A DNA stretch of 64,000 bases from a virus (IMGVR_UViG_3300042473_000506); one strand, 5' to 3'. Shown: positions 21,433 to 49,281, counted from the stretch's first letter. Numbers and translations are program-made. Notes: generated by a model from the sequence alone, not told the origin.

Positions 21433-21463
21433 ACGACTATTATATAGTAGATTGTACCAAAAG

Positions 21464-26461: not shown

Positions 26462-26492
26462 ACTGCTAGTATAGCAGTATTAACATTGCATG

Positions 26493-27227
26493 TCAACGGT
26501 CTATCCAGTCTTTATTACGGTAAGGTTTACCAATGGCTGCTTGCGGTAGATATCGAACTACTTTCTTTTTTAATCGTTGAATAATGGGATGGTTGTGATC
26601 GTGTTGGAATGCTCTTAAATACATTCTCCAACTGTTGTGACGTCGTCTGATGCCTTTTTGGTTTTCACTTAGGTAGTCGACGATTTGGTCCACATCACCT
26701 TTAAATTTGTCTATTAATTCACAAGCGATATTGAATCCGTATGCATCTATTTCATCGGAACAGCCCAAATAACTCTGCTCCATTTGCACTTCTGTTTTGT
26801 TTGCAGTGCTGGCATAATCTGGAATAATTTTAAATTTACGCCTACGATACTGCCTCATGTGTATCAATTCGTGTAGTAGGGTGTCTGCTACTGTATAACA
26901 CATTCCCTTGTAGCGTTTTTTAGTTATGCATATATGCTCGTCAAACAACGAATAAACAAATATTATCTCTACAGCCTTCTTTTTATCTTGGTCCCACTCA
27001 CTATAATATGTTCCGCCCACCCAAACTTGATTGGATTCTACTTTAAAATTAGTACTTCGTTTAAACCTAACTGGCGCTAATTTTTTTAAATGATTGGTAA
27101 TTTTGCTGTGGAATTTTTCTATAGTAAGCTGTTGCCCGACTAATTCCGGATAAAGAGAGTACAGGAAACTGGCGATAGTTTCTCGATCTAGCATAGACCA
27201 ATTGAATCGTACTCTTGGTGTAGTCAT
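26493..27227 (-). CDS. hypothetical HExxH metallopeptidase-like protein
   Basis: 'LLHELIHMRQY' zinc-binding-like motif. Confidence 0.35.
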   Translation of the reverse strand: MTTPRVRFNWSMLDRETIASFLYSLYPELVGQQLTIEKFHSKITNHLKKLAPVRFKRSTNFKVESNQVWVGGTYYSEWDQDKKKAVEIIFVYSLFDEHICITKKRYKGMCYTVADTLLHELIHMRQYRRRKFKIIPDYASTANKTEVQMEQSYLGCSDEIDAYGFNIACELIDKFKGDVDQIVDYLSENQKGIRRRHNSWRMYLRAFQHDHNHPIIQRLKKKVVRYLPQAAIGKPYRNKDWIDR

Positions 27228-32675: not shown

Positions 32676-33755
32676 TTATCCTTTAGTTGGGAAAGGCCAA
32701 TCACTGCCTTGTGCCCTAAACACAGTTCCAGGAGGTGGTGTCACCTTACCATCAGTATTGCGAGTCCAACCAGTTGGTTGCACATAACGATACCGTGCTG
32801 GATCACCGTTTTCGCGATCTTCCACACCGGCCTCGTATCCAACGTCATATGCATTGTGTTCTCTGGAACCATAGTTGTATGAATTGCTATAGTCTGCACC
32901 AGAGAAGCCGTCACTATAACCACGCTTATGGATACTTGAACCGACTCGGACTTCTGGCGCAGGCTTAGCCGCACGTACAGTTTCAGTACTGTTGGCATTG
33001 CTCTGTACAGGCTTGTCAAAAGCATCCCTTGCTTCACCGCCCATTTCACCAATAACTTCATATCGGCAAGCACGACCCTTGGCACCATTGTAGTCACTTG
33101 GGATTGAAACAACATCAGCTGGATCAATCTTAACAATTACCACACGGCTGTCATTACCACCAAAGTGGTCCAAGTAACTCAAACCGCAGAAGTGGAGACC
33201 AGTACTGCAAGTTTGATCCTTGTTGTCGTCAACAGCGTTGCGTTCCATTTCGACAACAGTACCCGGGCTATTGTCCATAGTACCACTGTGAATGTCTTTG
33301 AAGTCTCGGCGTACTTTCTTGTAGGCAAGGAAGTAACCATCGGGAGTGATGGGCAAACTGTTCTTTTCCAAGAAGCCATAGAGTTCATCTACTGAACGCT
33401 TTGAAGGGTTCTTCATCAAGTTGTGCATGAACAGAACCATTGGCTCAATAGTAAAGCCATCCTGCAACATGGTAATCATACGGCTTGCCAATACACCTGC
33501 AAAAGGTTGTCCTTTCCAGAACAGTTGTTCGCCTTTGACAGAGATGTTGCCAGCACCGTAGTTCAGCACAACCTTGACTGGGTCAATAATGTTTTTAACA
33601 GTGTCCCAGTCTTGTGCTTTAATAGCATCAACTACCTTTTGGTAAGTGACGTGGGTCTTAGAAATCGTATGTGGTTTGCCGTCAATAACGACAGTAACAT
33701 TCGAACCTTGAAGAATAAACGGATAACTCATTTTAAATACCTTTCTTTGCATCAA
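32676..33755 (-). CDS. rIIB: rIIB-like protein
   Basis: 'PITPDGYFLAYKKV...MDNSPGTVVEMERNAVDDNKDQTCSTGLHF...VVSIPSDYNGAKGRACRYEVI' matches remembered T4 rIIB blocks; adjacent to rIIA. Confidence 0.65.
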   Translation of the reverse strand: MMQRKVFKMSYPFILQGSNVTVVIDGKPHTISKTHVTYQKVVDAIKAQDWDTVKNIIDPVKVVLNYGAGNISVKGEQLFWKGQPFAGVLASRMITMLQDGFTIEPMVLFMHNLMKNPSKRSVDELYGFLEKNSLPITPDGYFLAYKKVRRDFKDIHSGTMDNSPGTVVEMERNAVDDNKDQTCSTGLHFCGLSYLDHFGGNDSRVVIVKIDPADVVSIPSDYNGAKGRACRYEVIGEMGGEARDAFDKPVQSNANSTETVRAAKPAPEVRVGSSIHKRGYSDGFSGADYSNSYNYGSREHNAYDVGYEAGVEDRENGDPARYRYVQPTGWTRNTDGKVTPPPGTVFRAQGSDWPFPTKG

Positions 33756-35910
33756 TTAAATTTACATACTCGGCAATATCGCTTGCCTCTACGCGGTAAG
33801 TACTCAAACTAGTCAACAACGGATAACGGCTGTTAACTGTGTTGAGTTCTGTTTGATACTTGGTCACAAGTGCTTCTGGGCTAAGGTTAGCTGTAGGAGC
33901 AAACTTGCGGAACAGTCTATCAATATTGTAGCGGTTTCCTGTGAACTTGTCAACCTTTACAAACACTGAAACCAGTTTAGCGTAAGGACTGTTGGCATCA
34001 ATTTCAGCCAAAATATCTTTATTGTGGATGCCGTTGATAACATCGGCCCCCTCTAATGCACTCTTAACCAAACTCATCAACAGTTTGGAATTGTCCTTAG
34101 CAGCCAACTGATCAACAATGTGTTCTTCAAAGTTCTTCCAGTTTGGCTTCTTCTTGATATCTTCAATGTCGCTCTTACGTACACCGTAGATCTCACCGTT
34201 GAACAAATTGTGCAAGCTCTTGACATCTTCATGCATGTCCTTACCGCTAGTATAGCCTTTGGCACTTAGCATTGTGAAGCCGCTCAATGGTACATAGTAG
34301 TAGGTTTCTGTAGTGACAAACTTGCTAGTATCGCCTGCGGCACGCCAGACCATATCTTGCTCATCACGACGATAGCCACCGCCACCACGACGTTCCAACT
34401 TGAGAATTGAAACGTTCTTACCCATGTTCTCACGTTCACGTTGCTTCAAGGTACTTGCGACAAAGCGACGAGCAAGCGGAGGTTCTTGGATAGCGGCAAA
34501 GAAAGACTTGGTATCCATGTCCTTAGTCTTGTCTGCCTTTTCCAAAATCCAGATAGCACGGCTGTAAACATCGCAACCAGTTTCACGATAGTGATAACGA
34601 GCACGTTCGCCGGCACCGGTCTTTAAATCATTGATGATGAAGTGACTGGCGTCATCAACCTGCACATGCCATTCTTGCCAAGTGATGTAATGTCCGGCAG
34701 CATTTTTTGCATGTCCGGGAGCGTACTCTGTAGTGCTCTTACCAGTGGTCACAGCCTTGTTATGACGAGTCTGATGCAACTGTCGAATCTGGATGTTATA
34801 GTTAGCAGCCAGGTCCTCTACTTTAAACTCAAACCGCTTCAAACGGTTGTACTGTTTGTCGTCATAAGTAGGCAAAGCAGTGTCTTGAGCATACTTGCTC
34901 ACAGCCGCGGTCCACAGTCGATGCTCTTTCTTCTTGAACAAGAACACAGCACGATCCCACAGGTTCTCAATAGCATCTGCTTCCTTGGCAATGACCACAG
35001 TCAACGCCGCATTGACTGCTTCCAATTTACGTTTGATAGCCGCAACAGTTGATGGGATGTAACTGAGGCCTTCGCGGCTGGCTTGGAAGTCCAGTTCGCC
35101 AATACCAAAGTGCATTTCCAAACCGCAGATCAACAACTGCTTCAACTCAGGCGGAATAGATCCGTCAGCGTTAGGCACCTCGATAGGATAAGCAATATTG
35201 CCCATAATGGCTGCACTGTTACTGCGATCCTTGAAACTATGCACACCGGGAACAATGTCGCGGCTTTCGTACTCAGCATCAACAAACTGGAAATCGGAAC
35301 TGCCAGAAACAACCGGACGGAGAGCAAAGTGTTTGTAGACAACTCGAGCTTCTTGTCGGAACTTGTCAAAGTCGTAACGATCGTTGACGGAAAACTTAAC
35401 TTCAACACCAGCAGGCTCGTCTGTAGCTTCCTGCATCATCAAGGCAATGCTGGGCACGCCTTCCCCGTTGATAAAAGCTGAGTAGATACCCTTAACGCCG
35501 TTTTGGATAGCAGTCACAGTGAAGTTGTCAGTGTAGCTGAACGGACTCTTTGAACCCAACCCCAGCGCACCAATAAACTCGTTGGAGTTTGTTTTAGTAC
35601 TTTCAAAGTAAGTGGTGTAGATTTGGGTAACTTGCTGATGACTCAAGCCAGTGCCGTAGTCACGGATGGCAAAGTGCGGCTCCAATGTGTTGGGCAAATG
35701 CACATCAAACGGAGTGTCTTTCTTACCTGCGGCTGCATGGCTGTCCACAGCATTGCAACTCAATTCGCGGATGATAGCACGGATCTTGTTAGCATACAAG
35801 CCCGAACTCAAAATGCTGAACGCTTTGGCAGAATTGCGAATACGGAACTCGCCAATTTCTGCTACGTTAGAAACAATAGCTTCGTTAACTGGAGCATTGT
35901 TGAGAATCAT
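33733..35910 (-). CDS. rIIA: rIIA-like protein with N-terminal GHKL ATPase fold
   Basis: 'SAKAFSILSSGLYANKIRAIIRELSCNAVDSH' (Bergerat N-box ExxxNAxD) and 'IRDYGTGL' (G1 box); 725 aa like T4 rIIA; overlaps rIIB start. Confidence 0.7.
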   Translation of the reverse strand: MILNNAPVNEAIVSNVAEIGEFRIRNSAKAFSILSSGLYANKIRAIIRELSCNAVDSHAAAGKKDTPFDVHLPNTLEPHFAIRDYGTGLSHQQVTQIYTTYFESTKTNSNEFIGALGLGSKSPFSYTDNFTVTAIQNGVKGIYSAFINGEGVPSIALMMQEATDEPAGVEVKFSVNDRYDFDKFRQEARVVYKHFALRPVVSGSSDFQFVDAEYESRDIVPGVHSFKDRSNSAAIMGNIAYPIEVPNADGSIPPELKQLLICGLEMHFGIGELDFQASREGLSYIPSTVAAIKRKLEAVNAALTVVIAKEADAIENLWDRAVFLFKKKEHRLWTAAVSKYAQDTALPTYDDKQYNRLKRFEFKVEDLAANYNIQIRQLHQTRHNKAVTTGKSTTEYAPGHAKNAAGHYITWQEWHVQVDDASHFIINDLKTGAGERARYHYRETGCDVYSRAIWILEKADKTKDMDTKSFFAAIQEPPLARRFVASTLKQRERENMGKNVSILKLERRGGGGYRRDEQDMVWRAAGDTSKFVTTETYYYVPLSGFTMLSAKGYTSGKDMHEDVKSLHNLFNGEIYGVRKSDIEDIKKKPNWKNFEEHIVDQLAAKDNSKLLMSLVKSALEGADVINGIHNKDILAEIDANSPYAKLVSVFVKVDKFTGNRYNIDRLFRKFAPTANLSPEALVTKYQTELNTVNSRYPLLTSLSTYRVEASDIAEYVNLIDAKKGI

Positions 35911-35948: not shown

Positions 35949-35977
35949 ATTATACAAGAAAAAACCAACCCTGTCAA
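35949..35977 (-). promoter_or_regulatory. sigma70 consensus early promoter TTGACA-N17-TATAAT upstream of rIIA
   Basis: Minus strand 'cTTGACAgggttggttttttcttgTATAATatatac'; -35 lies in an inverted repeat ccaac/gttgg. Confidence 0.6.
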
Positions 35978-35994
35978 GAGTTGGTTTGTCCAAA

Positions 35995-36198
35995 TTATCT
36001 ACCCACTGCAATCAATCGAATTCGTAATGCGTTCAAACTTGACTGGATGGTCATAAGTTCTGCCAACGCCTTAGTGTAGTGACCGTTAGGATGTTTATCA
36101 TGTCCCAGTTTACGATCTACGCCTAGAGCCATTTTTACACTGGCAATGGCTGTGTCAACTGCTTCAATTCTTGCTTCGAGTTTTTCTAAATCTGTCAT
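35995..36198 (-). CDS. hypothetical protein
   Basis: ORF. Confidence 0.3.
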   Translation of the reverse strand: MTDLEKLEARIEAVDTAIASVKMALGVDRKLGHDKHPNGHYTKALAELMTIQSSLNALRIRLIAVGR

Positions 36199-36404
36199 TT
36201 TCTTTTTCCAATCTTGTCTACAACATCGGCCTTGCTCTGTAGCAGTTGGGCACGGAAGCGACGATAAACTCGCAGTGAAGCGACACTCATAGGATCTTCC
36301 TTGCCCTCCAACTCTGCTATCTTAGCATCCAGTTCGGCTTCGTGGGCACGATGACGTTCGACATCTGCCTTGAGCCCTTTCGCATCACCCCAGAAGAATT
36401 TCAT
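36195..36404 (-). CDS. hypothetical protein
   Basis: ORF. Confidence 0.3.
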   Translation of the reverse strand: MKFFWGDAKGLKADVERHRAHEAELDAKIAELEGKEDPMSVASLRVYRRFRAQLLQSKADVVDKIGKRK

Positions 36405-36405
36405 A

Positions 36406-36699
36406 TCATCCCCACTTTAAAATAAAGAACACAGCGTCCTTTTCGTTTTTAAATCTATACTCAAAGGGTCCAGTACTCCAGCGAGGATTATTATATCCTT
36501 CGTTTCTGTGTCCGAAATACTTTGAGCACCATGCCATCATCTCATCCTTTTCTTCCCACCAATCACCGCCTGAATAATACACAGTGTATTTCTGGGGAGC
36601 AAGTTCTTCTCGAACCCGCAGTTCTAAACTACGGGGCCGTTTAGTAAACCAGTTCATAGGAGTATGCGGATAAAAACTATTAACGTCTAAATCAATCAT
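36406..36699 (-). CDS. hypothetical protein
   Basis: ORF. Confidence 0.3.
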   Translation of the reverse strand: MIDLDVNSFYPHTPMNWFTKRPRSLELRVREELAPQKYTVYYSGGDWWEEKDEMMAWCSKYFGHRNEGYNNPRWSTGPFEYRFKNEKDAVFFILKWG

Positions 36700-37232
36700 A
36701 CACCTACGAACCGGCTGGCTTCGGCGTGCAACCCTGCGTCACCCTTGGTCATCACAGCCAACAACAATCTCTTTTCCTCCAAGTAGGTCTTGGCGAAAGC
36801 AGGATCGTGAGCCATGATGCTACGGCTGTTGCTGATCAAATCTGCCAACTTGATGGTCTGTGCTTCGGCGGGCGCTCTTGCAGTATGCTCACGGTCTATT
36901 GCCTTGCGGTGGGCACGATTGCCATCATGCGGTTGGCTAACATCAGTCAACCATCCAACCAAGGTAGCAACATCGATACCAAAGGCCATGTGGATGTCAG
37001 TGTATGTGCAACCAGTGTCTTCCACAACATCATGCAACCAAGCAGCCGCAACCATATCAGGAGTGCTACCCGGAACGCCTGCTACGATCTTGGCAACTTC
37101 AGCCGGGTGGACAATGTAGGGTTCGTTAGTGTACTTACGCCTCTGTCCAACTGCGGCGTGAGCAGCCATGGCATAGACTTGCGCCTTACGGACTACATCA
37201 AATCCGCTGAGATCCATTGTAAAATCTTCCAT
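36696..37232 (-). CDS. HD-domain (p)ppGpp hydrolase (SpoT/Mesh1-like)
   Basis: 'NEPYIVHPAEVAKIV...MVAAAWLHDVVEDT' parallels SpoT 'GEPYITHPVAVACIL...LMAALLHDVIEDT'. Confidence 0.7.
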   Translation of the reverse strand: MEDFTMDLSGFDVVRKAQVYAMAAHAAVGQRRKYTNEPYIVHPAEVAKIVAGVPGSTPDMVAAAWLHDVVEDTGCTYTDIHMAFGIDVATLVGWLTDVSQPHDGNRAHRKAIDREHTARAPAEAQTIKLADLISNSRSIMAHDPAFAKTYLEEKRLLLAVMTKGDAGLHAEASRFVGV

Positions 37233-37258
37233 GCTGCTCTCCTTGTTAATAAGTATAT

Positions 37259-37287
37259 ATTATAGCATGGATTTACCATGCTGTCAA
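37259..37287 (-). promoter_or_regulatory. sigma70 consensus early promoter TTGACA-N17-TATAAT upstream of the HD hydrolase gene
   Basis: Minus strand 'gTTGACAgcatggtaaatccatgcTATAATatatac'; spacer is a perfect hairpin gcatgg/ccatgc. Confidence 0.6.
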
Positions 37288-37514
37288 CCGGAAGTTTTAA
37301 CCACTTCCAGGATGGTAATTTCTACTACTAAATGCTTACGCAGTAGCATGAACTTTTTGAACTTGGCTTCTATGTCCGCCTGAATGTACTCGTCATGGTA
37401 AGGCATAGTAGCAACGTCCTCATAGGGTTCATCGTTTTCGTTTAACGCTATGAAACTGAGCTTCACTGTGCCCTGTTCGGGCTCTTTGAACATTTTAACA
37501 AATTTGTTGAACAT
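37284..37514 (-). CDS. hypothetical protein
   Basis: ORF. Confidence 0.3.
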   Translation of the reverse strand: MFNKFVKMFKEPEQGTVKLSFIALNENDEPYEDVATMPYHDEYIQADIEAKFKKFMLLRKHLVVEITILEVVKTSG

Positions 37515-37522
37515 GCAAATAT

Positions 37523-38068
37523 TTAGTGATGCCCTTTAATTTCGTTATCTTTAATCATACGAACTGCCCGATCCATGGAGATTACAATTTCCCCAGTTGA
37601 GTCCATACCCACATCCATGCAACGATATTTTTCCATGCCTGTAGTGCCACCGTGCAAGTGACCGTGAAAGTGCAGAGAACCACGATGCATCTGATCCCAT
37701 TCATAGATAGGATAGTGAAACATCACGCACTTGTGGCCATCATAGGTGATATCCAAATACTTATGTACTTCAACAAATGCATCGCGGAATGTTACATCCA
37801 TTAGGGTCTTGCGGTCATGGTTGCCTTCTACAAGGATCTTATCTCCGTTCAACCGATTCATCATTCGTCCAGCATCACTTCCTGACATAAACGCTACATC
37901 GCCTAAGATGTAGACTAAATCACCCGGCTCTACTTTGTCGTTCCATTCTTCCGCCATTGCGTTATTCATATAAGCAACATCGTCACGAAATCGTGCCCGT
38001 GTTTGCGGACAGAACTTCATAATGTTCTTGTGCCCGAAATGGAGATCCGAAGTAATCCAAGTTTTCAT
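37523..38068 (-). CDS. calcineurin-like metallophosphoesterase (Ser/Thr phosphatase-like)
   Basis: 'SDLHFGH', 'ILGDVAF', 'GNHD', 'HGH' metallophosphatase motifs in order. Confidence 0.7.
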   Translation of the reverse strand: MKTWITSDLHFGHKNIMKFCPQTRARFRDDVAYMNNAMAEEWNDKVEPGDLVYILGDVAFMSGSDAGRMMNRLNGDKILVEGNHDRKTLMDVTFRDAFVEVHKYLDITYDGHKCVMFHYPIYEWDQMHRGSLHFHGHLHGGTTGMEKYRCMDVGMDSTGEIVISMDRAVRMIKDNEIKGHH

Positions 38069-38103
38069 ATTATTTCCTATTATACAGCCAGTGACCTATA
38101 CCG

Positions 38104-38568
38104 TCAACTGGCATACCAAATTTCTTTAAACCCTTCTTCCTCAGTGGGCTCTTCCCAACTGGCAATCATGCTGGCAATAACATGATCCGGAATCTCTTTG
38201 CCAGGGCGGCTCATCAATCGGCGCATAAGTTCTTTGTGTTCAGGTGTCTTAAACACTATTGCAATATGCTCATAGTCAGGTAACATGTTAAACTTGCGAG
38301 TACGACTTGCAAGAGTAGTACTAGTTTGATCCCAGATAATATCTCGATTCATTTCACGAGCCGCAACAACTTCCTTGGCCATAAGGTCTACAGCAGTGGG
38401 CATAAAGTCTACAAACACTTCGCTGTAGGTGCGTCCTACTTCCTTTGCGTAGATTTCAACCCACTTGTCTGTGCTAATACAAGAGCAGGTCAACGCCCAG
38501 TCTTGTTCAGCCACCCAAGTACTTTTACCTGAACCAGGCACTCCAATCAATTGATAACATTTTGCCAT
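38104..38568 (-). CDS. P-loop NTPase / small nucleotide or polynucleotide kinase
   Basis: Walker A 'GVPGSGKST' at residues 9-17; 154 aa. Confidence 0.5.
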   Translation of the reverse strand: MAKCYQLIGVPGSGKSTWVAEQDWALTCSCISTDKWVEIYAKEVGRTYSEVFVDFMPTAVDLMAKEVVAAREMNRDIIWDQTSTTLASRTRKFNMLPDYEHIAIVFKTPEHKELMRRLMSRPGKEIPDHVIASMIASWEEPTEEEGFKEIWYAS

Positions 38569-39036
38569 TTAATCTACACTCCTAAAAGTTCGCCAATCGT
38601 CTATGTTTGGCTTTTCATCTTCATCATATGTCCAACCCAAAGCCTTCATCATGCGATGCTTGACCAATAGGTTGGGGCTACGGAATCTACCTGTGTCTTC
38701 AAAGCCCATCATAACACCAACTTCGCAAACTGCACCACTGCGGCAAATACCCGCATAGCAGTGAACAACTACATTCATACGGTTGTCCTTTGCGTGTTGC
38801 AACAGTCGAACAAGCTCGTTAGCCTGCTCTTGACTACATTTCATTGCTTCTTCCAACACTTCGTCCTTGGCCTCTACGTCCAAAAACTCAAAGTTGTGTT
38901 GCTCTTTAAACTTGTGAGCAGGCACAGGGCGCCAGCTGGCCGGATCAACAATGCTGATCAGCATACTGTTCTCACCTGCCTCATGATGAAACCTTGTGGG
39001 TATATCAGCGGCCGCTACGTTTTCAATCCATGGCAT
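38569..39036 (-). CDS. dual-specificity / tyrosine-phosphatase-like protein
   Basis: 'VVVHCYAGICRSGA' = HCx5R(S/T) phosphatase P-loop. Confidence 0.65.
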   Translation of the reverse strand: MPWIENVAAADIPTRFHHEAGENSMLISIVDPASWRPVPAHKFKEQHNFEFLDVEAKDEVLEEAMKCSQEQANELVRLLQHAKDNRMNVVVHCYAGICRSGAVCEVGVMMGFEDTGRFRSPNLLVKHRMMKALGWTYDEDEKPNIDDWRTFRSVD

Positions 39037-39059
39037 TTTATTCTCCTGCGCATTATATA

Positions 39060-39088
39060 ATTATAGCATCACTTTACCATTTTGTCAA
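39060..39088 (-). promoter_or_regulatory. sigma70 consensus early promoter TTGACA-N17-TATAAT upstream of the phosphatase gene
   Basis: Minus strand 'cTTGACAaaatggtaaagtgatgcTATAATtatataat'; aligns over ~38 bp with the 37259..37287 promoter; AGGAG RBS downstream. Confidence 0.6.
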
Positions 39089-39103: not shown

Positions 39104-39317
39104 TATGTCCACCCAAAAAACTCGCCTAGAAAAAAAAGCTGACGATATATTTGAGTTGCTGGATCATTATGTTTATCCCACAACGGGCGAAACACTGGCA
39201 GCTCAAAAGGGTTTGATGGTAGGCTGGTTAGCTAGACTGGCAACTACTGACTGGACAGTTGCAGAAGAATTAGAAAGACGATTACATCTTGCTCGGAAAC
39301 AAAAAGGTAAAATTTGA
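39104..39317 (+). CDS. possible small protein (70 aa; C-terminal part of ORF 38994..39317)
   Basis: Start at Met 'MSTQKTRLEKK...'; the upstream part of the listed ORF overlaps the minus-strand promoter. Confidence 0.25.
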
Positions 39318-39353
39318 ATTTTATACCCTCTAATTTTAGAAATAAATATAATT

Positions 39354-39905
39354 ATGAGATGTTTCTATAAATTAAAAATTAATAATCTAGAATCTATACA
39401 GGCACACGCATTATCTAAAATATCTGAAGAAGATCTTAATTTGATGCCAACTAGATTATTTTATCCAGAATATAATTTTTTAGATGATCAAGATCTCTTA
39501 TGTGCGTTAAATCAATACGGGTTGACAAATTATATACATAATGTTGCTCTTTTTGTTCTCAATTCAGGAGGCATAAGCCCTATTCATGTCGACGGGGATA
39601 ATGACTATAATTGGAGTTTAAATATACCTTTAAAAAATTGCAGATATACTCGAACTAATTTTTATCAATCTAATGAGGTTCCTGTTAAGAAAAAAAGTCC
39701 AAACAGTGATATAGAATACAGTATCTTTGATCCAAACTCTTGCACACTACTAGATTCTCTTCGATTATCTGATCCATTTTTAATGAATGTGTCAGTTCCT
39801 CACAGCATATCTAATCTTACTTTTACAACAAGAGTTTCTATATGTATAAGAATAAAATCTACATTTGACATAGAAGCCGCTCTGTCAGAATGGGATTTAA
39901 AATAA
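39354..39905 (+). CDS. small 2OG/Fe(II)-oxygenase-like (DSBH) protein, island paralogue 1
   Basis: 'SPIHVDGDNDYNWSLNIPLKNC' (HxD, NxPL) ... 'VSVPHSISN' ... 'RVSICIR' (distal His + Arg). Confidence 0.5.
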   Translation: MRCFYKLKINNLESIQAHALSKISEEDLNLMPTRLFYPEYNFLDDQDLLCALNQYGLTNYIHNVALFVLNSGGISPIHVDGDNDYNWSLNIPLKNCRYTRTNFYQSNEVPVKKKSPNSDIEYSIFDPNSCTLLDSLRLSDPFLMNVSVPHSISNLTFTTRVSICIRIKSTFDIEAALSEWDLK

Positions 39906-39912
39906 CGAATTT

Positions 39913-40452
39913 CTACATAATAAATTTTTCAAATCTACTTAATGCATCCTGCCATTTGAAATATTTCGAATTGTGTAATGATACTTTTATACTAACACAC
40001 CATCGAGGTGACGTTATATTTGATACGTTATGAGGAACACCGCTTTGAAATAAACACGCCCCTTGTAAGTTTACGGATTCGATTAACTGCATTTTATCAA
40101 TTTCGTAGTCTCTTTTCCAAGCTACACCATTGTGTTTCGGTAGTCCTGGATACTTATTAATTGATCTGTACCAGTTAACTAGACTATCATTTGCATTTAT
40201 ATAAAAATTTAAATTTGTTTGATCGTAAACGTTATAGTTGTCTATATGAATCGGGGAAGACGTGCTTTCCCCACTATAATAAATTATTAGGCCGTTTAGT
40301 CGAAAATCATCAATTTTCTTTAACAGTTCTAGCATATCTGGACTTAATATTTCTGTTATATGAGCAGTACCTAATTTCCATTGTTTTTCGCATACAAAAG
40401 ATTCGCTAAGAAACGGTACAGGAAATGACAGTTTTTTAAAATAATCGCTCAT
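39913..40452 (-). CDS. 2OG/Fe(II)-oxygenase-like protein, paralogue 2
   Basis: 'SPIHIDNYN...' ... 'SGVPHNVSN' ... 'RWCVSIK'. Confidence 0.5.
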   Translation of the reverse strand: MSDYFKKLSFPVPFLSESFVCEKQWKLGTAHITEILSPDMLELLKKIDDFRLNGLIIYYSGESTSSPIHIDNYNVYDQTNLNFYINANDSLVNWYRSINKYPGLPKHNGVAWKRDYEIDKMQLIESVNLQGACLFQSGVPHNVSNITSPRWCVSIKVSLHNSKYFKWQDALSRFEKFIM

Positions 40453-40515
40453 TCAAATATTTACCACCTAATTATTAATCGAGCTTTCTAGGAGTAATAA
40501 GAGCAGATAAATATT

Positions 40516-41082
40516 TTGATGAAATATTATAAAAAAATAGAAATTGAAAACTTAGAGGTAATACAGAAAAAAGTTTTACAATTTATTAAATTTAAACACC
40601 CCACTATATATTTTAGAAAAGTTGAGTCATCTTGGAACCATCTCGATGTTCCGAGTTTGTTGGCGGCATGCCCAGAACTTTCTGAGTCTTTCGGCAAATT
40701 GAATTTATCCTGCATTTTTGCGTCAATTCATATAATGTATGATAATACACATTCTGCTATACATACTGATATTACGCCCTGGAAAGCTAGAATTAACATT
40801 CCTATTTTAAATTGCAACGGAACATTTACTAAATTTTATACAGGTGAAAAGGTAGTAGAAGAAATTAGGACCATGGCAAATAATAAAACGTTTAAGGTAG
40901 ATGCAATTATAAATCCACTTGAATGTATTGAAGTAGACGCATACGAATTAACACAGCCGTTAATTCTTAAAACTTATATACCACATAGGGTTTTTATGAA
41001 TGAAACTTCGAGACCTAGAATAGCATTGTCAATTGGCTGCGATCCTGATCCATTCTATCAATATTTTTCGTCAGACGAATAA
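40516..41082 (+). CDS. 2OG/Fe(II)-oxygenase-like protein, paralogue 3
   Basis: 'SAIHTDITPWKARINIPILNC' ... 'TYIPHRVFMN' ... 'RIALSIG'. Confidence 0.5.
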   Translation: MMKYYKKIEIENLEVIQKKVLQFIKFKHPTIYFRKVESSWNHLDVPSLLAACPELSESFGKLNLSCIFASIHIMYDNTHSAIHTDITPWKARINIPILNCNGTFTKFYTGEKVVEEIRTMANNKTFKVDAIINPLECIEVDAYELTQPLILKTYIPHRVFMNETSRPRIALSIGCDPDPFYQYFSSDE

Positions 41083-41649
41083 ATCTGTAGTATCCACTAC
41101 ATCTTCAATATTTCTAAATTTAATAGGATGTAGTCCCCATCGCACGGTAAACATTATCCTTATATCATCATTAAAATTTTTAACACCATGCATGACATCA
41201 CCTTTAACAAAACAAGGCTTTGTTATCTCAAGGTCTTCGATAATTTCTAATTTAGAATTGTCTATAGGAGTTAGACCATGCAGGTAACTGCTTTGTACGG
41301 CACCCATGACTAGATTTTCTTTTGGACAATGATACCATAACATTTTTGTATTATGACAATTTAATACAGGAATATTTAATCCAAACGGTACTGTAATGAA
41401 TGAACTATCAACATGAGGAGCTAGCTCAGCATGCCCCGGTGTAAAATAAAACCTAAGTAATCGAATTTGACTTTTACTCCTCGACTTTAGCCACCTCATT
41501 AATTTTGGACAATGTTCAGTCATATGCTCTTCACTGAACGTACATGCATGTAGGCCTTTAGATGCATAATCATAATTAATAGATTTAATTAATTCGTGTT
41601 GAATCTCTTCAAAGTTGGGGATATGGATGTATCTATAAAGTTCTTGCAT
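41071..41649 (-). CDS. 2OG/Fe(II)-oxygenase-like protein, paralogue 4
   Basis: 'LAPHVDSSFITVPFGLNIPVLNC' ... 'GDVMHGVKN' ... 'RIMFTVR'; 3' ends of paralogues 3 and 4 overlap convergently by 12 nt. Confidence 0.5.
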   Translation of the reverse strand: MQELYRYIHIPNFEEIQHELIKSINYDYASKGLHACTFSEEHMTEHCPKLMRWLKSRSKSQIRLLRFYFTPGHAELAPHVDSSFITVPFGLNIPVLNCHNTKMLWYHCPKENLVMGAVQSSYLHGLTPIDNSKLEIIEDLEITKPCFVKGDVMHGVKNFNDDIRIMFTVRWGLHPIKFRNIEDVVDTTDLFV

Positions 41650-41694
41650 ACTTCCAAATATTTAGTAATAAATACTTTACAAACTTTAAAAATT

Positions 41695-42315
41695 ATGCTA
41701 CCTTCTATAACATTAAACCCTGATGATTATTATTATGCACTTAATCAGCCCTGTACAATCTTACCTCAACTATTAGAATATGTTCAAAGTGTAGAAGACT
41801 GGGAGGGATTAGATTGGCATACATTTTATTTAGATGTACCAAATAGGACTGCTTGTAATTTCGAATCAGATCCTGTAATTAAATTTTTTCTAGATCAGGG
41901 ATGGAGGTTAAACTTCACATGTATGCCCCCTAAGGGGCATTATCGATGGCATATCGATAATCAAGGAAATAGACAAACCGCAATAAATTTAGCACTAAAT
42001 GGTTTTGAAACAACTAAAGTTATGTGGCGACCAAATAGACCGTACGTGCGAAAAATGAATACAGAAATTATGGATATTCCCTACACACCTGGTACGTATT
42101 TTGTATTTAATACACAAGAGGAACATTGTGTAACTAATTTCAGTAATGAAAATAGATATCTATTAAGCATTACACCAGATAAAAGATTTGCTGTTCCTGA
42201 GTATTTTGACGGAATTTATAAAAATGTAAGTCCTAGTCGATACGCTGAAATTCTAAAAGGTTACAAGCTAGCATTTAAAGAGGTCGTTAGCGAAGTTAAA
42301 GCACAAGGTTGGTAG
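41695..42315 (+). CDS. 2OG/Fe(II)-oxygenase-like protein, paralogue 5 (start moved to internal Met)
   Basis: 'YRWHIDNQGNRQTAINLALNG' ... 'QEEHCVTN' ... 'RYLLSIT'; the listed ORF start (41596) overlaps paralogue 4 on the other strand. Confidence 0.45.
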   Translation: MLPSITLNPDDYYYALNQPCTILPQLLEYVQSVEDWEGLDWHTFYLDVPNRTACNFESDPVIKFFLDQGWRLNFTCMPPKGHYRWHIDNQGNRQTAINLALNGFETTKVMWRPNRPYVRKMNTEIMDIPYTPGTYFVFNTQEEHCVTNFSNENRYLLSITPDKRFAVPEYFDGIYKNVSPSRYAEILKGYKLAFKEVVSEVKAQGW

Positions 42316-42327
42316 TAGATTTTAAAT

Positions 42328-42936
42328 TCAGTCTTTCCATCTAATAGTATTCCAATCAAACATAAAATTTAAGTTAAGTTGTTCGTACGCTATCCATTGT
42401 TTAGTGTACTGAATATTAAGAGGAAAATCAATTACATTAAAATTATTATAAAATAGATGATGTAATTGTCTAGGTGATCGAGTTTCACCTAATCTTTTTC
42501 TTTTAAATGTTTCTATCAAATTTTTATTATAGTCATTAAATGTGATAGCAATAGCTTTACAATTATTGTCTATTGCCCATTGTTTGTGCATTGGTAAAAA
42601 AAGTTCTCTAGGTAATCCTAAATGTCGGTAATCTTTTGTAACCCATGTTCTACATCCGCCTATGGCAACTTCATTGGAGAATTCACTTCTATAAACTCCC
42701 GAACAGGCTACAATAGTTTCATTTTTTATCGCTAAGTGAAACGCTCCACTGGTTTCAAAATATCGATGCCTGTTGTATATTTGATGTATTAGTGTGTTAG
42801 ATTTAGTATGCCAATCTTCTACCCACATATTGCTGTGTGCTAGCTGAGTAATTTCTTCTGATGCCTCTTGACAAAATTTAAAAAATAAACTTTTATCCTC
42901 TAACTCGTCATACCGAATAAGTGTTAGATCAGACAT
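42328..42936 (-). CDS. hypothetical protein (possible acyltransferase fold)
   Basis: ORF between paralogues; no secure motif. Confidence 0.3.
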   Translation of the reverse strand: MSDLTLIRYDELEDKSLFFKFCQEASEEITQLAHSNMWVEDWHTKSNTLIHQIYNRHRYFETSGAFHLAIKNETIVACSGVYRSEFSNEVAIGGCRTWVTKDYRHLGLPRELFLPMHKQWAIDNNCKAIAITFNDYNKNLIETFKRKRLGETRSPRQLHHLFYNNFNVIDFPLNIQYTKQWIAYEQLNLNFMFDWNTIRWKD

Positions 42937-43477
42937 TGCTAACTAAATCTTCAAAATTTGGATTACCGTGAAATCTCATAGTAAATACCCACCGATCTTC
43001 GAGTTGATTTGATTGTGCTGAATGCGGACAATCTACTCTTAATAGATGAGGGCTGTCAATTTCTAATTTAAAATCTTCTGTATATGGTTCTTGCCACATA
43101 ATTTCATGATAAACGTTGTTGGATAACATTACAAGAGATGTGCTGTATTTTCCTTTATACCAAATTTGGTAACTGTTTTTACAACCTTTCAACGGAATGT
43201 TTATTGCAGATTTTATAATACCTTCTTCATTACCGTCTATATGAATACCTTGAAAACTATTCTTTGGTCTAATATAACTTAGACAATAGCGAACAGGAGG
43301 TATATTATACCTAGCTAGGTCTGCATCAATTATATGCTTTAATTGATTGTTGAGCTCGTGTCTTATTTGTATTTGTCTATCTACAGGAATTGAAGTATCT
43401 ATCTTTTTCTCTATATCTAAAATTGCAAATTCTTTTATAAGATGTTCGCATGTTAAATGAATTTTTTTACAGTACAC
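42929..43477 (-). CDS. 2OG/Fe(II)-oxygenase-like protein, paralogue 6
   Basis: 'QGIHIDGNEEGIIKSAINIPLKGC' ... 'VDCPHSAQSN' ... 'RWVFTMR'. Confidence 0.5.
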   Translation of the reverse strand: MYCKKIHLTCEHLIKEFAILDIEKKIDTSIPVDRQIQIRHELNNQLKHIIDADLARYNIPPVRYCLSYIRPKNSFQGIHIDGNEEGIIKSAINIPLKGCKNSYQIWYKGKYSTSLVMLSNNVYHEIMWQEPYTEDFKLEIDSPHLLRVDCPHSAQSNQLEDRWVFTMRFHGNPNFEDLVSNV

Positions 43478-43542
43478 GATGTTTATCGTAAAATTTTGGA
43501 ATATCTTTTATTTAACTCTCTGCAATTTTGTAATATAAATAT

Positions 43543-44169
43543 ATGAAACATATTATGATAGTAGCCACACCACTTAACCTTCCTACTGTAGTCCCTGACG
43601 ATTGGTCTGTATTTTGGAATATTTGGAACAATTATGGAAAACCTATAGTTAAAACGCAACAAAACCATAAGGGATCTTATTCAAAAATTGGAGATACAGA
43701 TGTCTGGAAAGGTTTAGATATCTATAAAAATAATTTATTTCGATCTGCATGGACTGCACCTTACTATGATATTCGAGAAGAACTTCCCTTAATGTATCAA
43801 ATGATTACAAAAATTCCTCTATTCTCTCTTGTCACTGGTGTTAGGGTTGTAGAAAGCCTAGGAAATATTCCGCCACACACTGATGATAATATAGATCGAT
43901 GGAACGTTAGAGCAATGTTGCATTATACTGATTCGAACCCTCAATGGTTTTTTACTAAACCGAATGATACAAAAACTGCTGTGTTGTTAACATTGCCAGA
44001 GTCCACTAATTGGTTTGCATATAACGATAAGTACACATGGCATGGGTCGAAGTATAACCCGGATCACCCTAAATTATTAATTCAAATGTTTGGAGTAGGA
44101 TTTAAGAACAGTCAGTTCCTACAAAAAAGTGCAGAAATGTACAAAGAATATACAATATCATATGACTAA
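43543..44169 (+). CDS. 2OG/Fe(II)-oxygenase-like protein, paralogue 7 (divergent)
   Basis: 'IPPHTDDNIDRWNVRAMLHY' ... 'KYTWHGSKYN'. Confidence 0.4.
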   Translation: MKHIMIVATPLNLPTVVPDDWSVFWNIWNNYGKPIVKTQQNHKGSYSKIGDTDVWKGLDIYKNNLFRSAWTAPYYDIREELPLMYQMITKIPLFSLVTGVRVVESLGNIPPHTDDNIDRWNVRAMLHYTDSNPQWFFTKPNDTKTAVLLTLPESTNWFAYNDKYTWHGSKYNPDHPKLLIQMFGVGFKNSQFLQKSAEMYKEYTISYD

Positions 44170-44950
44170 TTTATTTCAAGCTAGTTCAACTACTGTTAGG
44201 TATTCTCATATTGTAGCAAGGTTAGCAATTATTATAGGTGCATTCTTTGTAACATTTAATTTACCCTTATTACTTGTGTCTGCTATTGCATATCATGTTT
44301 TACTATCTATCGGTATAAGCATAATGATGCATAGATACTTCAGCCATAAAAGTTTTGAATTTAAAAATAATATTGTCAGAAAAGTTTTTATTATAATTTC
44401 ATTGCTTTCGTTGCGAGGAAGTCCAATAGCTTGGGCATACATCCATCGAGCACATCACGAACACGTAGATACCGAAGATGATCCGCATACTCCTGTTGGT
44501 AGAAAATTTAACTTTTTTGGATTACTTGACAACAAAAATAAAGCTGATGATATTCAGATATTTAAAATTAGATCTATGATGACCAAGGAGCACCTATTTA
44601 TTAATCAATACTATTGGTTGATCTTAGCATGTTTGTTAGTACCTTTTGCATTTATTAATTTTACATTATTTTATTATACATGGCTAGTTCCTGTAGTTCT
44701 TGTACAATTTTCTATTAATTTACAAAACTATTTAGGACATATGTCAGGTATAGGTGCGTATAGGACTTACACTAATCCATCTAGCGGCAATAGTCAAAAT
44801 AGTTTGTTATTGTGGCCTTTATATTTAGGTGAAGCGTGGCATAACAACCACCATGCACATGCTCGACATTATCACTACGGAACTGAAATAAGTGGAAAGT
44901 GGTGGGAGATCGATCCCGGTGCAATGCTCATTAAGTTACTGAAAAAATGA
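44162..44950 (+). CDS. integral-membrane di-iron fatty-acid desaturase / hydroxylase-like enzyme
   Basis: Three histidine boxes 'HRYFSH', 'HRAHHEH', 'WHNNHHAH' separated by hydrophobic spans. Confidence 0.6.
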   Translation: MTNLFQASSTTVRYSHIVARLAIIIGAFFVTFNLPLLLVSAIAYHVLLSIGISIMMHRYFSHKSFEFKNNIVRKVFIIISLLSLRGSPIAWAYIHRAHHEHVDTEDDPHTPVGRKFNFFGLLDNKNKADDIQIFKIRSMMTKEHLFINQYYWLILACLLVPFAFINFTLFYYTWLVPVVLVQFSINLQNYLGHMSGIGAYRTYTNPSSGNSQNSLLLWPLYLGEAWHNNHHAHARHYHYGTEISGKWWEIDPGAMLIKLLKK

Positions 44951-45507
44951 TACGATTTTTAACAATGGATGACTTGCCGGATTGCATGAAAATTGCACCA
45001 TTAAAAAATAGAACCGGTGGCACTGTTCCATTAACACTCGAAGGATTTTTAGGTGCCTTTGAAAAATATTTCCAGGATGATGAATTTTGCCGTGTGATTG
45101 GATACTTTGAAAATAATGAACTTGTTAGTTTTGTATGTATCAGAATGTTCGAAACTACGATGAGAGGAAAATTTTGGGTTATTTCGGGATTATATACTAA
45201 GAATTTTAAAAGTTATTTTAGCTTTAACCATTCAGGAATAGGCGAATTAATTAAATTTGCATTCGATTATGCTGAATCACGAGGTTGGTATGAATATTAT
45301 TATTGCACTGCCGAACGTGTAATAAATGTATATGAAAGACAATGGAAACGATCACACTCTCATAGATACGAACATATATTGTTAGACGTTGTTCCACCTA
45401 ATACAAAACCATTTTATGAATTGCACTGGAGACTAATGGGGCAAGAAGTTAAACCTGTCCCAATGATTGTTAAAAAGCGAGCGTTAAAACAAGAATTTAG
45501 AAAATAA
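44947..45507 (+). CDS. hypothetical protein (GNAT-like acyltransferase fold possible)
   Basis: 186-aa ORF; beta-alpha pattern only. Confidence 0.3.
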   Translation: MIRFLTMDDLPDCMKIAPLKNRTGGTVPLTLEGFLGAFEKYFQDDEFCRVIGYFENNELVSFVCIRMFETTMRGKFWVISGLYTKNFKSYFSFNHSGIGELIKFAFDYAESRGWYEYYYCTAERVINVYERQWKRSHSHRYEHILLDVVPPNTKPFYELHWRLMGQEVKPVPMIVKKRALKQEFRK

Positions 45508-45553
45508 AAATCAGTTATTTTATCCTATAAATATAATGCTCATAGGAAACTAA

Positions 45554-46330
45554 ATGAACACAGCATTTTTATCTAGCAGCACTAGGGGTGCTCAACTATT
45601 CTTGATATTAAATTTAATAGGTACTTTCGGTGCTGTCTGGTTGTACGGATTAAATTTTAATTCTTTTATGATGGTACTAGTGGGATACTTTTTATATGGT
45701 TGTTTAGGTATCGTCGTAACTTATCACAGAAATCTTTCTCACAATAGTTATAGAACACATCCGATCATTGTAAAGATATTTTCATTATTAGGATGCTTTG
45801 CAGGGACCGGCAGTCCACTTGCATGGGTGGCCATTCATATCAATCATCACTTAAAGAGTGACAAGCCTACTGATCCGCATAGTCCGTTATACAAAGGGGT
45901 AAAGATCTTTATGATGGATTATATAAATGAAGTTGATAAAGATACAAAATGGAGAATGAGGGCATTAGTCACTGACAGATTCCAGCAATTCCTACATAGA
46001 TATTATTTTGCAATCATTGCAACCTATAGCCTTGTACTATTTTTAATAGGAGGATTTTGGTTGATGGTATTTTTTCATTGGGCGCCTGCTGCAATGACCG
46101 CCCTTATGAGTAATGTTGTTAATTATGTGGGACACAAACCAAGTTGGTGGGGTGGATATAGAACACACAATCTAAATGATCAAAGTACAAATAATTGGCT
46201 ATGGGCTATTCCTAGTTGGGGGGAAGCGTGGCACAACAATCATCATAGATATCCTAGGAATTTTAGTTTTGGAAACAAGTGGTGGGAGATTGATATTTCG
46301 GCACTTGTAATTAGATTGATTAAAATTTAA
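45554..46330 (+). CDS. integral-membrane di-iron desaturase / hydroxylase-like enzyme, second paralogue
   Basis: Histidine boxes 'HRNLSH', 'HINHHLKSD', 'WHNNHHRYP'; same C-terminal 'KWWEID' as 44162..44950. Confidence 0.6.
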   Translation: MNTAFLSSSTRGAQLFLILNLIGTFGAVWLYGLNFNSFMMVLVGYFLYGCLGIVVTYHRNLSHNSYRTHPIIVKIFSLLGCFAGTGSPLAWVAIHINHHLKSDKPTDPHSPLYKGVKIFMMDYINEVDKDTKWRMRALVTDRFQQFLHRYYFAIIATYSLVLFLIGGFWLMVFFHWAPAAMTALMSNVVNYVGHKPSWWGGYRTHNLNDQSTNNWLWAIPSWGEAWHNNHHRYPRNFSFGNKWWEIDISALVIRLIKI

Positions 46331-47202
46331 TGAAATTTAATAGCAAACATCCAATTGTGGCTATGCCCATGAATGGAGTATCCAATGTTGACTTAGCTAT
46401 TGCTGTAACTCAAGCGGGTGCTGTACCTAGTTTGTCAATCTTTAATTATTATGAAGGTGGAAAAGTAAATCTAAAGCATGTAGATGCCAGTTTAAAAAGG
46501 TTTACAGATGCAACCAGTTCTACAGAAATAATTTTAAGTATGCACTGGGAACATTTTATATGGACTCCTGTTATAGATGTTCTATTAGAAAATAATATAA
46601 AATTAGTTGAACTTTTTATTAGACCATCAGATCATCATTTGTGGCCTGAATTATCTAAACAGATCGACAATATGAAGGTACACGGTATAGCTGTAATGTT
46701 TAAAACTTCTAATCGGCTACCTATGTCCTATTTTGATTCGATAGTATTGAAAGGTCCTCAGGCTGCTGGGAGATCATTCGGTAGTCTAGTATCATTAGAA
46801 GATCGATATGATGCTATGAAAGAACAAGTAGGATCAAGAATCATTCCAAGCGGTGGTATTGGCAGTCCTGAACAGGTAAAATATTTTATGGACAGAGAAG
46901 CATTAGCTGTGGGTATTGGCACACTACTTGCAGCATCTGAAGAAAGTTGTGTGTCAAGCGATACTAAACAAAAAATTATAGAGTCCACATCAAAAGATAT
47001 CAAATTAATAGGTCCGTTAAATTGCAGAGGGCTGTTATTTTCTAGACTAGAAAATGACGACGATAACAATTCCAAATCTCTATATGAGGGTATCAAGGGA
47101 ACTAATTCCGGATGCATCTATGTAGGCAACGGAATAGACTATATAAACAAAATAATGCCAGTAAAAGATATAATAGAGTGGTTAGTTAAAGATGTTAATT
47201 AA
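46330..47202 (+). CDS. FMN-dependent nitronate monooxygenase / FabK-like TIM-barrel oxidoreductase
   Basis: 'PIVAMPMNGVSNVDLAIAVTQAGAVPSLSIF' and 'IIPSGGIGSPEQVKYFMDREALAVGIGTLL' parallel the NMO/FabK FMN-binding blocks. Confidence 0.55.
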   Translation: MKFNSKHPIVAMPMNGVSNVDLAIAVTQAGAVPSLSIFNYYEGGKVNLKHVDASLKRFTDATSSTEIILSMHWEHFIWTPVIDVLLENNIKLVELFIRPSDHHLWPELSKQIDNMKVHGIAVMFKTSNRLPMSYFDSIVLKGPQAAGRSFGSLVSLEDRYDAMKEQVGSRIIPSGGIGSPEQVKYFMDREALAVGIGTLLAASEESCVSSDTKQKIIESTSKDIKLIGPLNCRGLLFSRLENDDDNNSKSLYEGIKGTNSGCIYVGNGIDYINKIMPVKDIIEWLVKDVN

Positions 47203-49263: not shown

Positions 49264-49281
49264 GATATATAAATATTCTTT

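Follow-up and report, generated by a model that had tools for sequence, protein, structure and literature searches.

Probable Promoter Cassettes with Embedded Hairpins in an Uncultured Jumbo Phage Distantly Related to PA5oct

Genomic context of the rIIA locus

The 64,000-nucleotide (nt) stretch of viral DNA IMGVR_UViG_3300042473_000506, referred to below as the window, carries exact and near-exact copies of the promoter-like motif TTGACA-N17-TATAAT between its genes, and some of these copies are combined with hairpins into compact cassettes. The genes of the window lie nearly all on the minus strand, from 1 to ~39 kb and from ~56 to 64 kb. They include rIIA (33733..35910) and rIIB (32676..33755), genes encoding collagen-repeat tail fibres and a ClpP-like prohead protease, sugar-nucleotide genes, genes of the 7-deazaguanine pathway, and at least 18 tRNA genes (58676..64000, minus strand). 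An Rfam scan of the window recovered tRNAs only. A megablast search with 5 kb of the window against 50,697 phage records found no cultured match at the DNA level, while the top cultured protein matches were PA5oct-like jumbo Pseudomonas phages (Arenbergviridae), with amino acid identities of 28-30%. The window's proteins were also found on metagenomic contigs of up to 374,908 bp. The source of the window is an uncultured jumbo phage, which is not of the T4 type. Two scans of IMG/VR yielded 47 related loci (numbered with the prefix L) with protein identities of 51-100%. Upstream of and including the rIIA promoter, four motif sites (P1 to P4) and their hairpins were identified as follows.

39060..39088, minus strand: P1, perfect motif with TGn before the -10 element and a degenerate GGTAAA element in the spacer; predicted start at ~39053; predicted to drive the phosphatase-like gene 38569..39036; hairpin not significant (z = -0.41)
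38079..38107, minus strand: P2, TTGACG with 1 mismatch; the TGA of the -35 element is the stop codon of gene 38104..38568, and the ATG of gene 37523..38068 lies 10 nt 3' of the -10 element
38082..38116, minus strand: interrupted hairpin of P2, with the -35 element in the 5' arm, paired with the spacer; -14.7 kcal/mol, z = -2.90
37259..37287, minus strand: P3, perfect motif with TGn; the TGA of the -35 element is the stop codon of gene 37284..37514; predicted to drive the HD phosphohydrolase gene 36696..37232 over a 26-nt interval with AAGGAG
37264..37282, minus strand: spacer hairpin of P3, AGCATGG-TAAAT-CCATGCT; -10.3 kcal/mol, z = -3.25; includes the GGTAAATCC variant of the 9-mer GGTAAAACC
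35949..35977, minus strand: P4, perfect motif followed by ATATACATA; predicted to drive rIIA through a C/A-rich leader ending in GAAAGG
35962..35987, minus strand: terminator-like hairpin of P4, with an 11-pair stem and a TGAC loop, followed by TTTTTTCTTG; -14.8 kcal/mol, z = -3.94

Motif census and sequence evidence for promoters

Five perfect copies of TTGACA-N17-TATAAT occur in the window, compared with 0.04 ± 0.20 in dinucleotide-preserving shuffles, none of which (0 of 100) reached five. P1, P3, and P4 are among them, as the original prediction had stated, and all three are on the minus strand. The census of that prediction was incomplete, as two perfect sites (61312..61340 and 61904..61932) and one site with perfect hexamers and an 18-nt spacer (2069..2098) had been overlooked. 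When up to one mismatch was allowed, 13 sites were found in the window (shuffles, 1.09 ± 1.03), and all 13 are on the minus strand. The motif sites of the window are nearly all codirectional with genes and tRNAs. The same threshold applied to the window and 46 related loci gave 226 sites on the gene strand and 6 on the other strand, and this family set was de-duplicated to 105 clusters. The perfect sites fall between genes or tRNAs, and the distance from a promoter to the start of the next open reading frame (ORF) is 5-57 nt, unless the site adjoins a tRNA. The genes behind the sites include rIIA and those for a phosphatase, an HD hydrolase, and a phosphoesterase, as well as tRNAs, which are typical early functions. 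The sites are kept in relatives down to a protein identity of 51%, amid diverging flanks. In an A/T-rich genome (about 40% GC), matches could arise by chance or through composition, and a looser scan found 41 sites where 31 were expected in 12 kb, so that weak matches are uninformative. However, the excess of perfect sites, all of them on the gene strand and intergenic, and the 226:6 strand counts effectively refute this explanation already, and it retains practically no probability.

The surroundings of the hexamers also bear the marks of promoters. Of the 105 clusters, 31 have TG at -15/-14 (TGn) and 36 have it at -14/-13 (nTG). A occupies -6 in 67 clusters and +1 in 71, a pyrimidine occupies -1 in 77, and T occupies +2 in 61. 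The family consensus further has a base other than T at -36 and an A/T-rich stretch from -22 to -17, in which C is almost absent at -20 and -19. Downstream of the promoters, TACATA, ACACAC, and GAAAGG are enriched 14- to 20-fold (TACATA 20-fold). ATATAC had been noticed 3' of two of the three -10 elements; it is present at P4 and P3, with TATATA in its place at P1. The extended consensus and the downstream enrichment suggest that ATATAC comprises the discriminator and the predicted start, which would be followed by a C/A-rich leader. The similarity claimed between P3 and P1 over about 38 bp is obtained only with a 1-nt gap, and the ungapped alignment spans ~31 bp (25 of 31 identical). Overall, the identification of these sites as promoters is well supported at the sequence level by strand bias, position, conservation in 46 related contigs, and the extended consensus.

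Upstream of the promoters, a weak A signal shows roughly 11-bp phasing, with A at -65, -54, and -43/-42. The motif TTGG[AT] shows two peaks of enrichment, one at -51/-50 (16 sites) and the other at -62..-60 (11 sites), separated by roughly one turn of the helix, and an example in the window is found at 35985..35993 (TTGGACAAA). This motif and the A enrichment may constitute an UP-element-like feature. TTGGACAAA was also considered as a DnaA-box-like or MotA-box-like sequence and rejected, as the match is poor and no -10 element lies at the required distance.

The strong consensus had been taken to point to an Escherichia coli-like host, which is too specific, as the consensus has been reported for the Pseudomonas phage PA5oct (PMC7318152) and a near-consensus for Vibrio and Yersinia T4-type phages (PMC4122927). 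T4 itself has TTTACW rather than TTGACA (PMC4122927). All that can be read from the consensus is that the host RNA polymerase has a standard housekeeping sigma factor, and the only hosts it speaks against are those in which the main sigma factor recognizes a different motif. A phage-encoded sigma factor or polymerase could instead read the motif, given that jumbo phages frequently have their own transcription machinery and that the stretch examined is 64 kb of a ~375-kb genome. This is extremely unlikely, however, because the motif matches the sigma-70-family consensus exactly, its spacing is optimal, and a TG extension and discriminator features are present; in addition, no polymerase or sigma gene was seen within the window. 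PA5oct, the nearest cultured phage, depends on the host polymerase and is reported to have TTGAC and TATAATA around the start sites mapped by RNA sequencing (PMC7318152). PA5oct was also considered as a transcript-mapped proxy for the window and was dropped because its rIIA region (42 kb) contains no perfect consensus site and no comparable hairpins.

Terminator-like hairpins fused to promoters

In the P4 hairpin, the loop is the TGAC of TTGACA, and the closing pair consists of the hexamer's initial T and final A, while the tail 3' of the stem, TTTTTTCTTG, is the spacer of the P4 promoter. The hairpin begins 7 nt past the stop codon of gene 35995..36198. The repeat ccaac/gttgg reported earlier across this -35 element is real and forms part of the 11-pair stem with the T-rich tail. 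A second element of the same construction lies near the start of the window.

831..866, minus strand: composite element, with the -35 element TTGACG in the loop, the -10 element TATACT at 831..836, and an ATG (824) 6 nt past the -10 element
847..866, minus strand: hairpin of this element, AAGGGTCT-TGAC-GGGCCCTT, with the T-rich tail TTTTTAC

Each of the two hairpins comes directly after a stop codon and consists of a G/C-containing stem (8-11 pairs) with a 4-nt loop, followed by a T-rich tail. Four strong terminator-like hairpins occur on the gene strand, and only these two directly follow a stop codon and have TGAC loops. Eleven -35-bracketing elements of the family align without gaps, with 87.6% of the cells paired. 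In this alignment, 8 of the 11 pairs change on both sides, and 25 compensatory cells were counted, compared with 10 ± 2.1 in shuffles (0 of 500 shuffles reaching this number); sliding the partner columns reduces every measure. The stem at the rIIA promoter is an example, with CCAGT/ACTGG in L002 and CCAAC/GTTGG in the window. The elements at 35962..35987 and 847..866 have the sequence characters of intrinsic terminators and would be expected to end transcription there. The suggestion that terminators had been co-opted is thus supported for 35949 and 831..866, where a stem with a U-tract and compensatory substitutions follows a stop codon. The spacer hairpins at 37259, 18414, and 61312 have an A/U-rich tail and not a U-tract and are more aptly termed possible attenuators or 3'-end hairpins.

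Hairpin excess and the nature of the inverted repeats

For a test of hairpin content, the region from -47 to -7 was folded as RNA and compared with a column-permutation null, which preserves the composition of each position, including the ACA...TGT symmetry of the hexamers. The mean minimum free energy was lower than that of the null in each set: -7.60 kcal/mol versus -4.01 ± 0.23 for 94 distinct sites, -6.30 versus -3.76 ± 0.26 for 57 de-duplicated clusters (z = -9.6), -5.12 versus -3.55 ± 0.20 for the expanded set of 105 clusters (z = -8.0), and -7.86 versus -3.75 ± 0.65 for the 13 window sites (0 of 2,000 permutations). A fold of -7 kcal/mol or better was found at 7 of the 13 window sites and in 26 of the 105 clusters (~25%), with the loop on the -35 element in 12 of the latter and in the spacer in 14. 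In addition to P3, the spacer class in the window includes the first two of the following sites; the third has no hairpin.

61312..61340, minus strand: perfect motif with the spacer hairpin ACAGGAT/ATCCTGT (61317..61337, z = -2.76); predicted start ~2 nt 5' of tRNA-Leu 61220..61303 (mature 5' end)
18414..18442, minus strand: TTGACT, with a spacer hairpin at 18418..18436 (7 bp, z = -4.06); the TGA of the -35 element is the stop codon of gene 18439..18717, and the site is predicted to drive the 406-amino-acid (aa) gene 17162..18382
61904..61932, minus strand: perfect motif between two tRNA genes; no hairpin

The spacer inverted repeats predicted at 37259 and 18414 were both confirmed, the former as a stem of 7 bp rather than 6. 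Consensus promoters are interspersed among the tRNA genes of 58676..64000, and a radical-SAM gene (62063..63565) sits within this tRNA array.

The spacer of P3 also contains a variant of a conserved element. The 9-mer GGTAAAACC has 18 distinct gene-strand copies in 895 kb, 16 of which lie in consensus promoters. Nine promoter copies occupy -25..-17, in several unrelated promoters whose flanks vary while the 9-mer is kept. In the window, it is represented at 37268..37276 (GGTAAATCC variant) and, in degenerate form, at 39069..39077, and among the relatives it is found at L004 3571, L005 9948, L007 7979, L009 9316 and 9948, L010 5683 and 7341, and L013 9497 and 9950. A second register of GGTAAAACC, at -49..-41, was rejected, because every copy there belongs to the same orthologous position and doubles as coding sequence for the C-terminal G-K-T of the upstream protein.

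The inverted repeats had been suggested to be operators, at which a dimeric phage or host DNA-binding protein would repress the promoters. They do overlap the -35 element or fill the spacer, which are common places for repressor binding, and GGTAAAACC is kept as a sequence at a fixed register in nine distinct promoters, which represent several nonorthologous positions. With the sole exception of GGTAAAACC, however, no DNA sequence recurs from promoter to promoter as an operator would: the stems differ by site (GCATGG, CAGCC, ACAGGAT, CCAAC, and AGGG) and covary, with double substitutions that preserve pairing. Folding is better for the sense strand than for the antisense strand (Wilcoxon P = 3e-5), among hairpin clusters in 20 versus 6 (P = 4e-4), and 36 G·U pairs occur among the 292 pairs of the stems, where a palindrome in DNA would have mismatches. 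The G·U pairs, the sense-strand bias, and the compensatory changes indicate structure in the RNA transcribed from the sense strand and not palindromes in DNA. The -35-bracketing class moreover has terminator-typical T-rich tails, and the ~50 window proteins that were scanned against Pfam or PHROGs included nothing repressor-like. The operator claim is thus unsupported, and such a role for the repeats is very unlikely.

The function of the spacer hairpins is less certain than that of the -35-bracketing class. Nearly all of the 34 related loci recovered have kept the promoter of the 406-aa gene, but in the majority its spacer is another one, with no counterpart of the window's hairpin, which may therefore be dispensable; in L080, a terminator-like stem across the -35 element is found instead. 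This variability, which also speaks against operators, and the lack of a U-tract would fit functionless hairpins, either arising as a side effect of the ACA...TGT symmetry or left as relics when cassettes were copied, in promoters that are themselves real. The degenerate, unpaired copy of the P3 spacer in P1, and the fact that the cassettes have clearly been copied and recombined, would fit as well. However, the column permutation, which keeps the ACA/TGT composition, folds far more weakly (z of -8 to -10), and the sense-strand bias is unexpected for relics. One orthologous promoter, compared by eye, retains a compensatory spacer stem (ACACAGG/CCTGTGT in L011, ACACAGA/TCTGTGT in L013, and ACAGGAC/GTTCTGT in L009). 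Functionless spacer hairpins at 37259, 18414, and 61312 are a lesser possibility that deserves to be kept in view; more probably, these hairpins are attenuators or 3'-end hairpins of variable importance.

Predicted leaderless starts and stop codons in the -35 element

In 24 of the 105 clusters (~23%), the distance from the -10 element to an ATG opening an ORF of 40 or more codons is 5-7 nt, and in 18 of these it is exactly 6 nt. An ATG at 8-16 nt was found in only one case, and most sites have it at 17-57 nt. The close class comprises six sites in the window (ATG at 26461, 21432, 2062, 824, 58603, and 11467; minus strand) and L005 7508, L008 6865, L072 7143, L099 15676, and others in the relatives. 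In addition to the composite element at 831..866, the window sites concerned are as follows.

21439..21467, minus strand: TTGACT; the TGA of the -35 element is the upstream stop codon; ATG 21432 is 6 nt past the -10 element, and gene 21193..21432 is predicted to be leaderless
26468..26496, minus strand: TATACT; the TGA of the -35 element is the stop codon of gene 26493..27227; ATG 26461 is 6 nt past the -10 element, and ORF 26234..26461 is predicted to be leaderless, with the N terminus from that Met common to five orthologues
2069..2098, minus strand: perfect hexamers with an 18-nt spacer; the TGA of the -35 element is the upstream stop codon; ATG 2062 is 6 nt past the -10 element
58610..58638, minus strand: TTGACT/TACAAT, 2 mismatches; ATG 58603 is 6 nt past the -10 element
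11473..11501, minus strand: weaker site with 2 mismatches at the 3' end of a sugar-epimerase gene, whose stop codon TAA is in the -10 element; ATG 11467 is 5 nt past the -10 element

The mRNAs of this class are predicted to be leaderless, starting on the AUG itself. The orthologues share their N termini from the Met of this class, and several of these N termini are lipoprotein signal peptides that begin at this residue, which fixes the start codon. Starts called naively from the longest ORF are thus probably wrong at three genes, where 875, 2098, and 58630 should be replaced by 824, 2062, and 58603, respectively, and ORF 26234..26461 was missed; the ATG 5-7 nt past the -10 element is preferable at all four (26461, 824, 2062, and 58603).

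The upstream gene is drawn into the promoter as well. In 21 of the 105 clusters (~20%), the upstream ORF ends at the TGA within TTGACA, and the window stops of this kind, all on the minus strand, are 38104..38106, 37284..37286, 26493..26495, 21464..21466, 18439..18441, and 2095..2097. Where such a stop is combined with a leaderless start, the intergenic gap is 31 nt and consists of the promoter alone.

The original prediction had also listed weaker sites at 25393..25421 and 11473..11501. Each has two mismatches, and neither has a hairpin (-1.7 and -1.9 kcal/mol, respectively). The remaining sites are as follows.

25393..25421, minus strand: weaker site with 2 mismatches, upstream of gene 24656..25354; no hairpin
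33925..33953, minus strand: 1 mismatch, inside the 3' end of rIIA, 172 nt upstream of rIIB; conserved in relatives; its function as a promoter is uncertain because it lies in coding sequence

A small conserved plus-strand gene (39108..39317) starts ~20 nt from the -35 element of P1, and the region may contain back-to-back promoters, with only a weak plus-strand match (9 of 12).

Cassette exchange among relatives

The region upstream of rIIA varies among relatives by whole units of a cassette and its gene. Compared with L002, L004 carries a 1.5-kb insertion flanked by a repeat of the -10 element plus ATATACATA, and L013 carries one of 2.2 kb that ends on its right at the first T of TATAAT. L009 and L002 regain homology ~6 nt before the -10 element. 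The rIIA promoter itself also varies in type, with the terminator form in some relatives and the GGTAAAACC-spacer form in others. In L012, which is ~90-98% identical to the window, a 797-bp insertion ends 4-6 nt upstream of the P3 -35 element and brings its own cassette, in which the segment from the -10 element to the ATG is nearly identical to that of P3 and the spacer is unrelated. Three breakpoints are thus at the -10 element and one is just upstream of the -35 element, and three other indels are not bounded by cassettes. The proposition that all indels are cassette-bounded was rejected on account of such counterexamples between close relatives.

Two neighbouring cassettes of L012 (7306..7334 and 7985..8013) have nearly identical segments from the -10 element to the ATG (TATAATATAYACTTATTARCAAGGAGAGYAGCATGGAAG) and the same -35 element, with unrelated spacers. 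The spacers seem to be exchanged as separate modules.

A larger difference between the window and its close relatives is an 18.8-kb island (39275..58116) with a GC content of ~32%, compared with ~42%, and mixed gene direction, which is absent from L012 and L001 (90-98% identical). A small biosynthetic cluster is suggested by the products of the island's genes, among them two proteins similar to fatty-acid desaturases, one similar to nitronate monooxygenase, a radical-SAM enzyme, and a QueC-like protein. No consensus promoter in the gene direction was found in the island. The bacterial homologues of its radical-SAM protein are at most 27% identical and scattered over phyla, and no host could be inferred from them.

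Proposed mechanism and significance

The cassettes probably serve the expression of early genes in a lytic jumbo phage, combining a promoter of the host sigma-70 type, in part of the cases a hairpin, and homology for recombination. Each cassette would offer a near-consensus promoter, including an A/T-rich discriminator, to host RNA polymerase that contains the housekeeping (sigma-70-type) sigma factor, and this promoter would fire strongly, without phage factors, upon entry of the DNA into the cell. About one-quarter of the cassettes would encode a sense-strand RNA hairpin, transcribed by the polymerase coming from the upstream gene. In the -35-bracketing class (35962..35987 and 847..866), with TGAC as the loop and the promoter spacer as the U-tract, the hairpin would act as a canonical intrinsic terminator, and a single stretch of ~45 bp would close one transcription unit and open the following one. 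In the spacer class (37259, 18414, and 61312), it would probably attenuate read-through or protect 3' ends. The repeated cassette sequence would supply homology for recombination, by which genes could be gained, lost, and swapped with breakpoints in the promoter core.

Several points weigh against this interpretation, among them the limited share of clusters with a hairpin, P1 (39060) having none, and the tails and variable occurrence of the spacer hairpins described above. Neither a 630-bp three-gene insertion at 36195..36205 nor the 18.8-kb island is bounded by cassettes. The one-mismatch sites within coding sequence (33925, 32546, and 12537) may be chance matches, as may the site at 46975, which lies in the island against the gene direction. 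The sites of related contigs are not independent, a problem that de-duplication lessens but does not abolish, and the starts, ends, and timing of the transcripts are all predictions.

A further reading, which is unlikely, is that the cassettes are self-contained mobile expression modules peculiar to this lineage of jumbo phages and that GGTAAAACC, being almost confined to promoters, is the recognition site of an unknown phage factor. This factor could be a regulator that switches a subset of promoters or a recombinase that moves the cassettes in the manner of an integron. The minimal form of such a module would be the 31-nt gap consisting only of the promoter, with the stop codon of the upstream gene contained in the -35 element and transcription beginning on the AUG of the next gene.

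If the cassettes are expression cassettes of the proposed kind, the composite type known from T4-type phages as PeSL (promoter-early stem-loop) would extend to a distant, uncultured lineage of jumbo phages, and its occurrence there would support a general answer to two problems, the insulation of small early genes and the swapping of genes between genomes. The consensus also makes early transcription units easy to locate in these metagenomic genomes, and the ~45-bp elements are compact parts that would join a terminator to a promoter. The leaderless class is the most testable new point and, if true, would inform on translation in the host.

Comparison with known systems

Like Rho-independent terminators, the -35-bracketing elements have a covarying stem, a short loop, and a T-rich tail after a stop codon. 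Unlike them, their loop is the core of a -35 element and their U-tract is a promoter spacer, which would make the element bifunctional. The cassettes resemble the early promoters of T4, T5, and PA5oct in their consensus-like hexamers, 17-bp spacing, A/T-rich surroundings, and association with early genes, including rIIA. With leaderless mRNAs, the close class shares the predicted start on the A of the AUG and the absence of a Shine-Dalgarno sequence. The lambda cI mRNA made from PRM is leaderless, in that case for a single regulatory gene, whereas here leaderless starts are predicted for about one-quarter of the consensus promoters of a lytic phage. Differential RNA sequencing of phage phiKZ found no leaderless phage transcript (PMC8244752).

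The closest known counterparts are the PeSL cassettes of the T4-type phages RB49/phi1, T4/PST, and KVP40/nt-1, for which promoter and terminator activities have been shown in reporter assays (Arbiol et al. 2010, PMC2839356; Comeau et al. 2014, PMC4122927). Their stem-loops occupy five positions, including between the hexamers, overlapping the -35 or the -10 element, upstream, and downstream. The RB49/phi1 promoters are near-perfect TTGACA-N17-TATAAT, and recombination between cassettes makes indels (PMC2839356, PMC4122927). In the window and its relatives, as in those phages, many repeated near-perfect TTGACA-N17-TATAAT promoters lie between small early genes, with a stem-loop between the hexamers, over the -35 element, or nearby that may be read as an upstream terminator or attenuator. 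The A3-4G3-loop-C3T3-4 stem of nt-1 resembles AAGGGTCT/GGGCCCTT, and indels or gene replacements between close relatives break inside the cassette. The published cassette ends with a Shine-Dalgarno sequence and the next start codon; most sites here fit this, with the ATG 17-57 nt past the -10 element, and 24 of the 105 clusters do not. However, the phage described here has its nearest cultured relatives among PA5oct-like jumbo phages and is not of the T4 type, a difference in taxonomic range and not in mechanism, and only about one-quarter of its promoter clusters have a hairpin. In ~23% of its cassettes, the Shine-Dalgarno leader is missing and the ATG lies 5-7 nt past the -10 element, ~20% use the TGA of the -35 element as the upstream stop codon, and the conserved spacer 9-mer GGTAAAACC marks a subfamily. 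The leaderless class, the -35 TGA stop, and the GGTAAAACC element are not part of the published PeSL description (PMC2839356, PMC4122927). PeSLs are backed by activity and mini-circle data, and the present cassettes, as predicted from the sequence, match the PeSL kind, in a new phage lineage.

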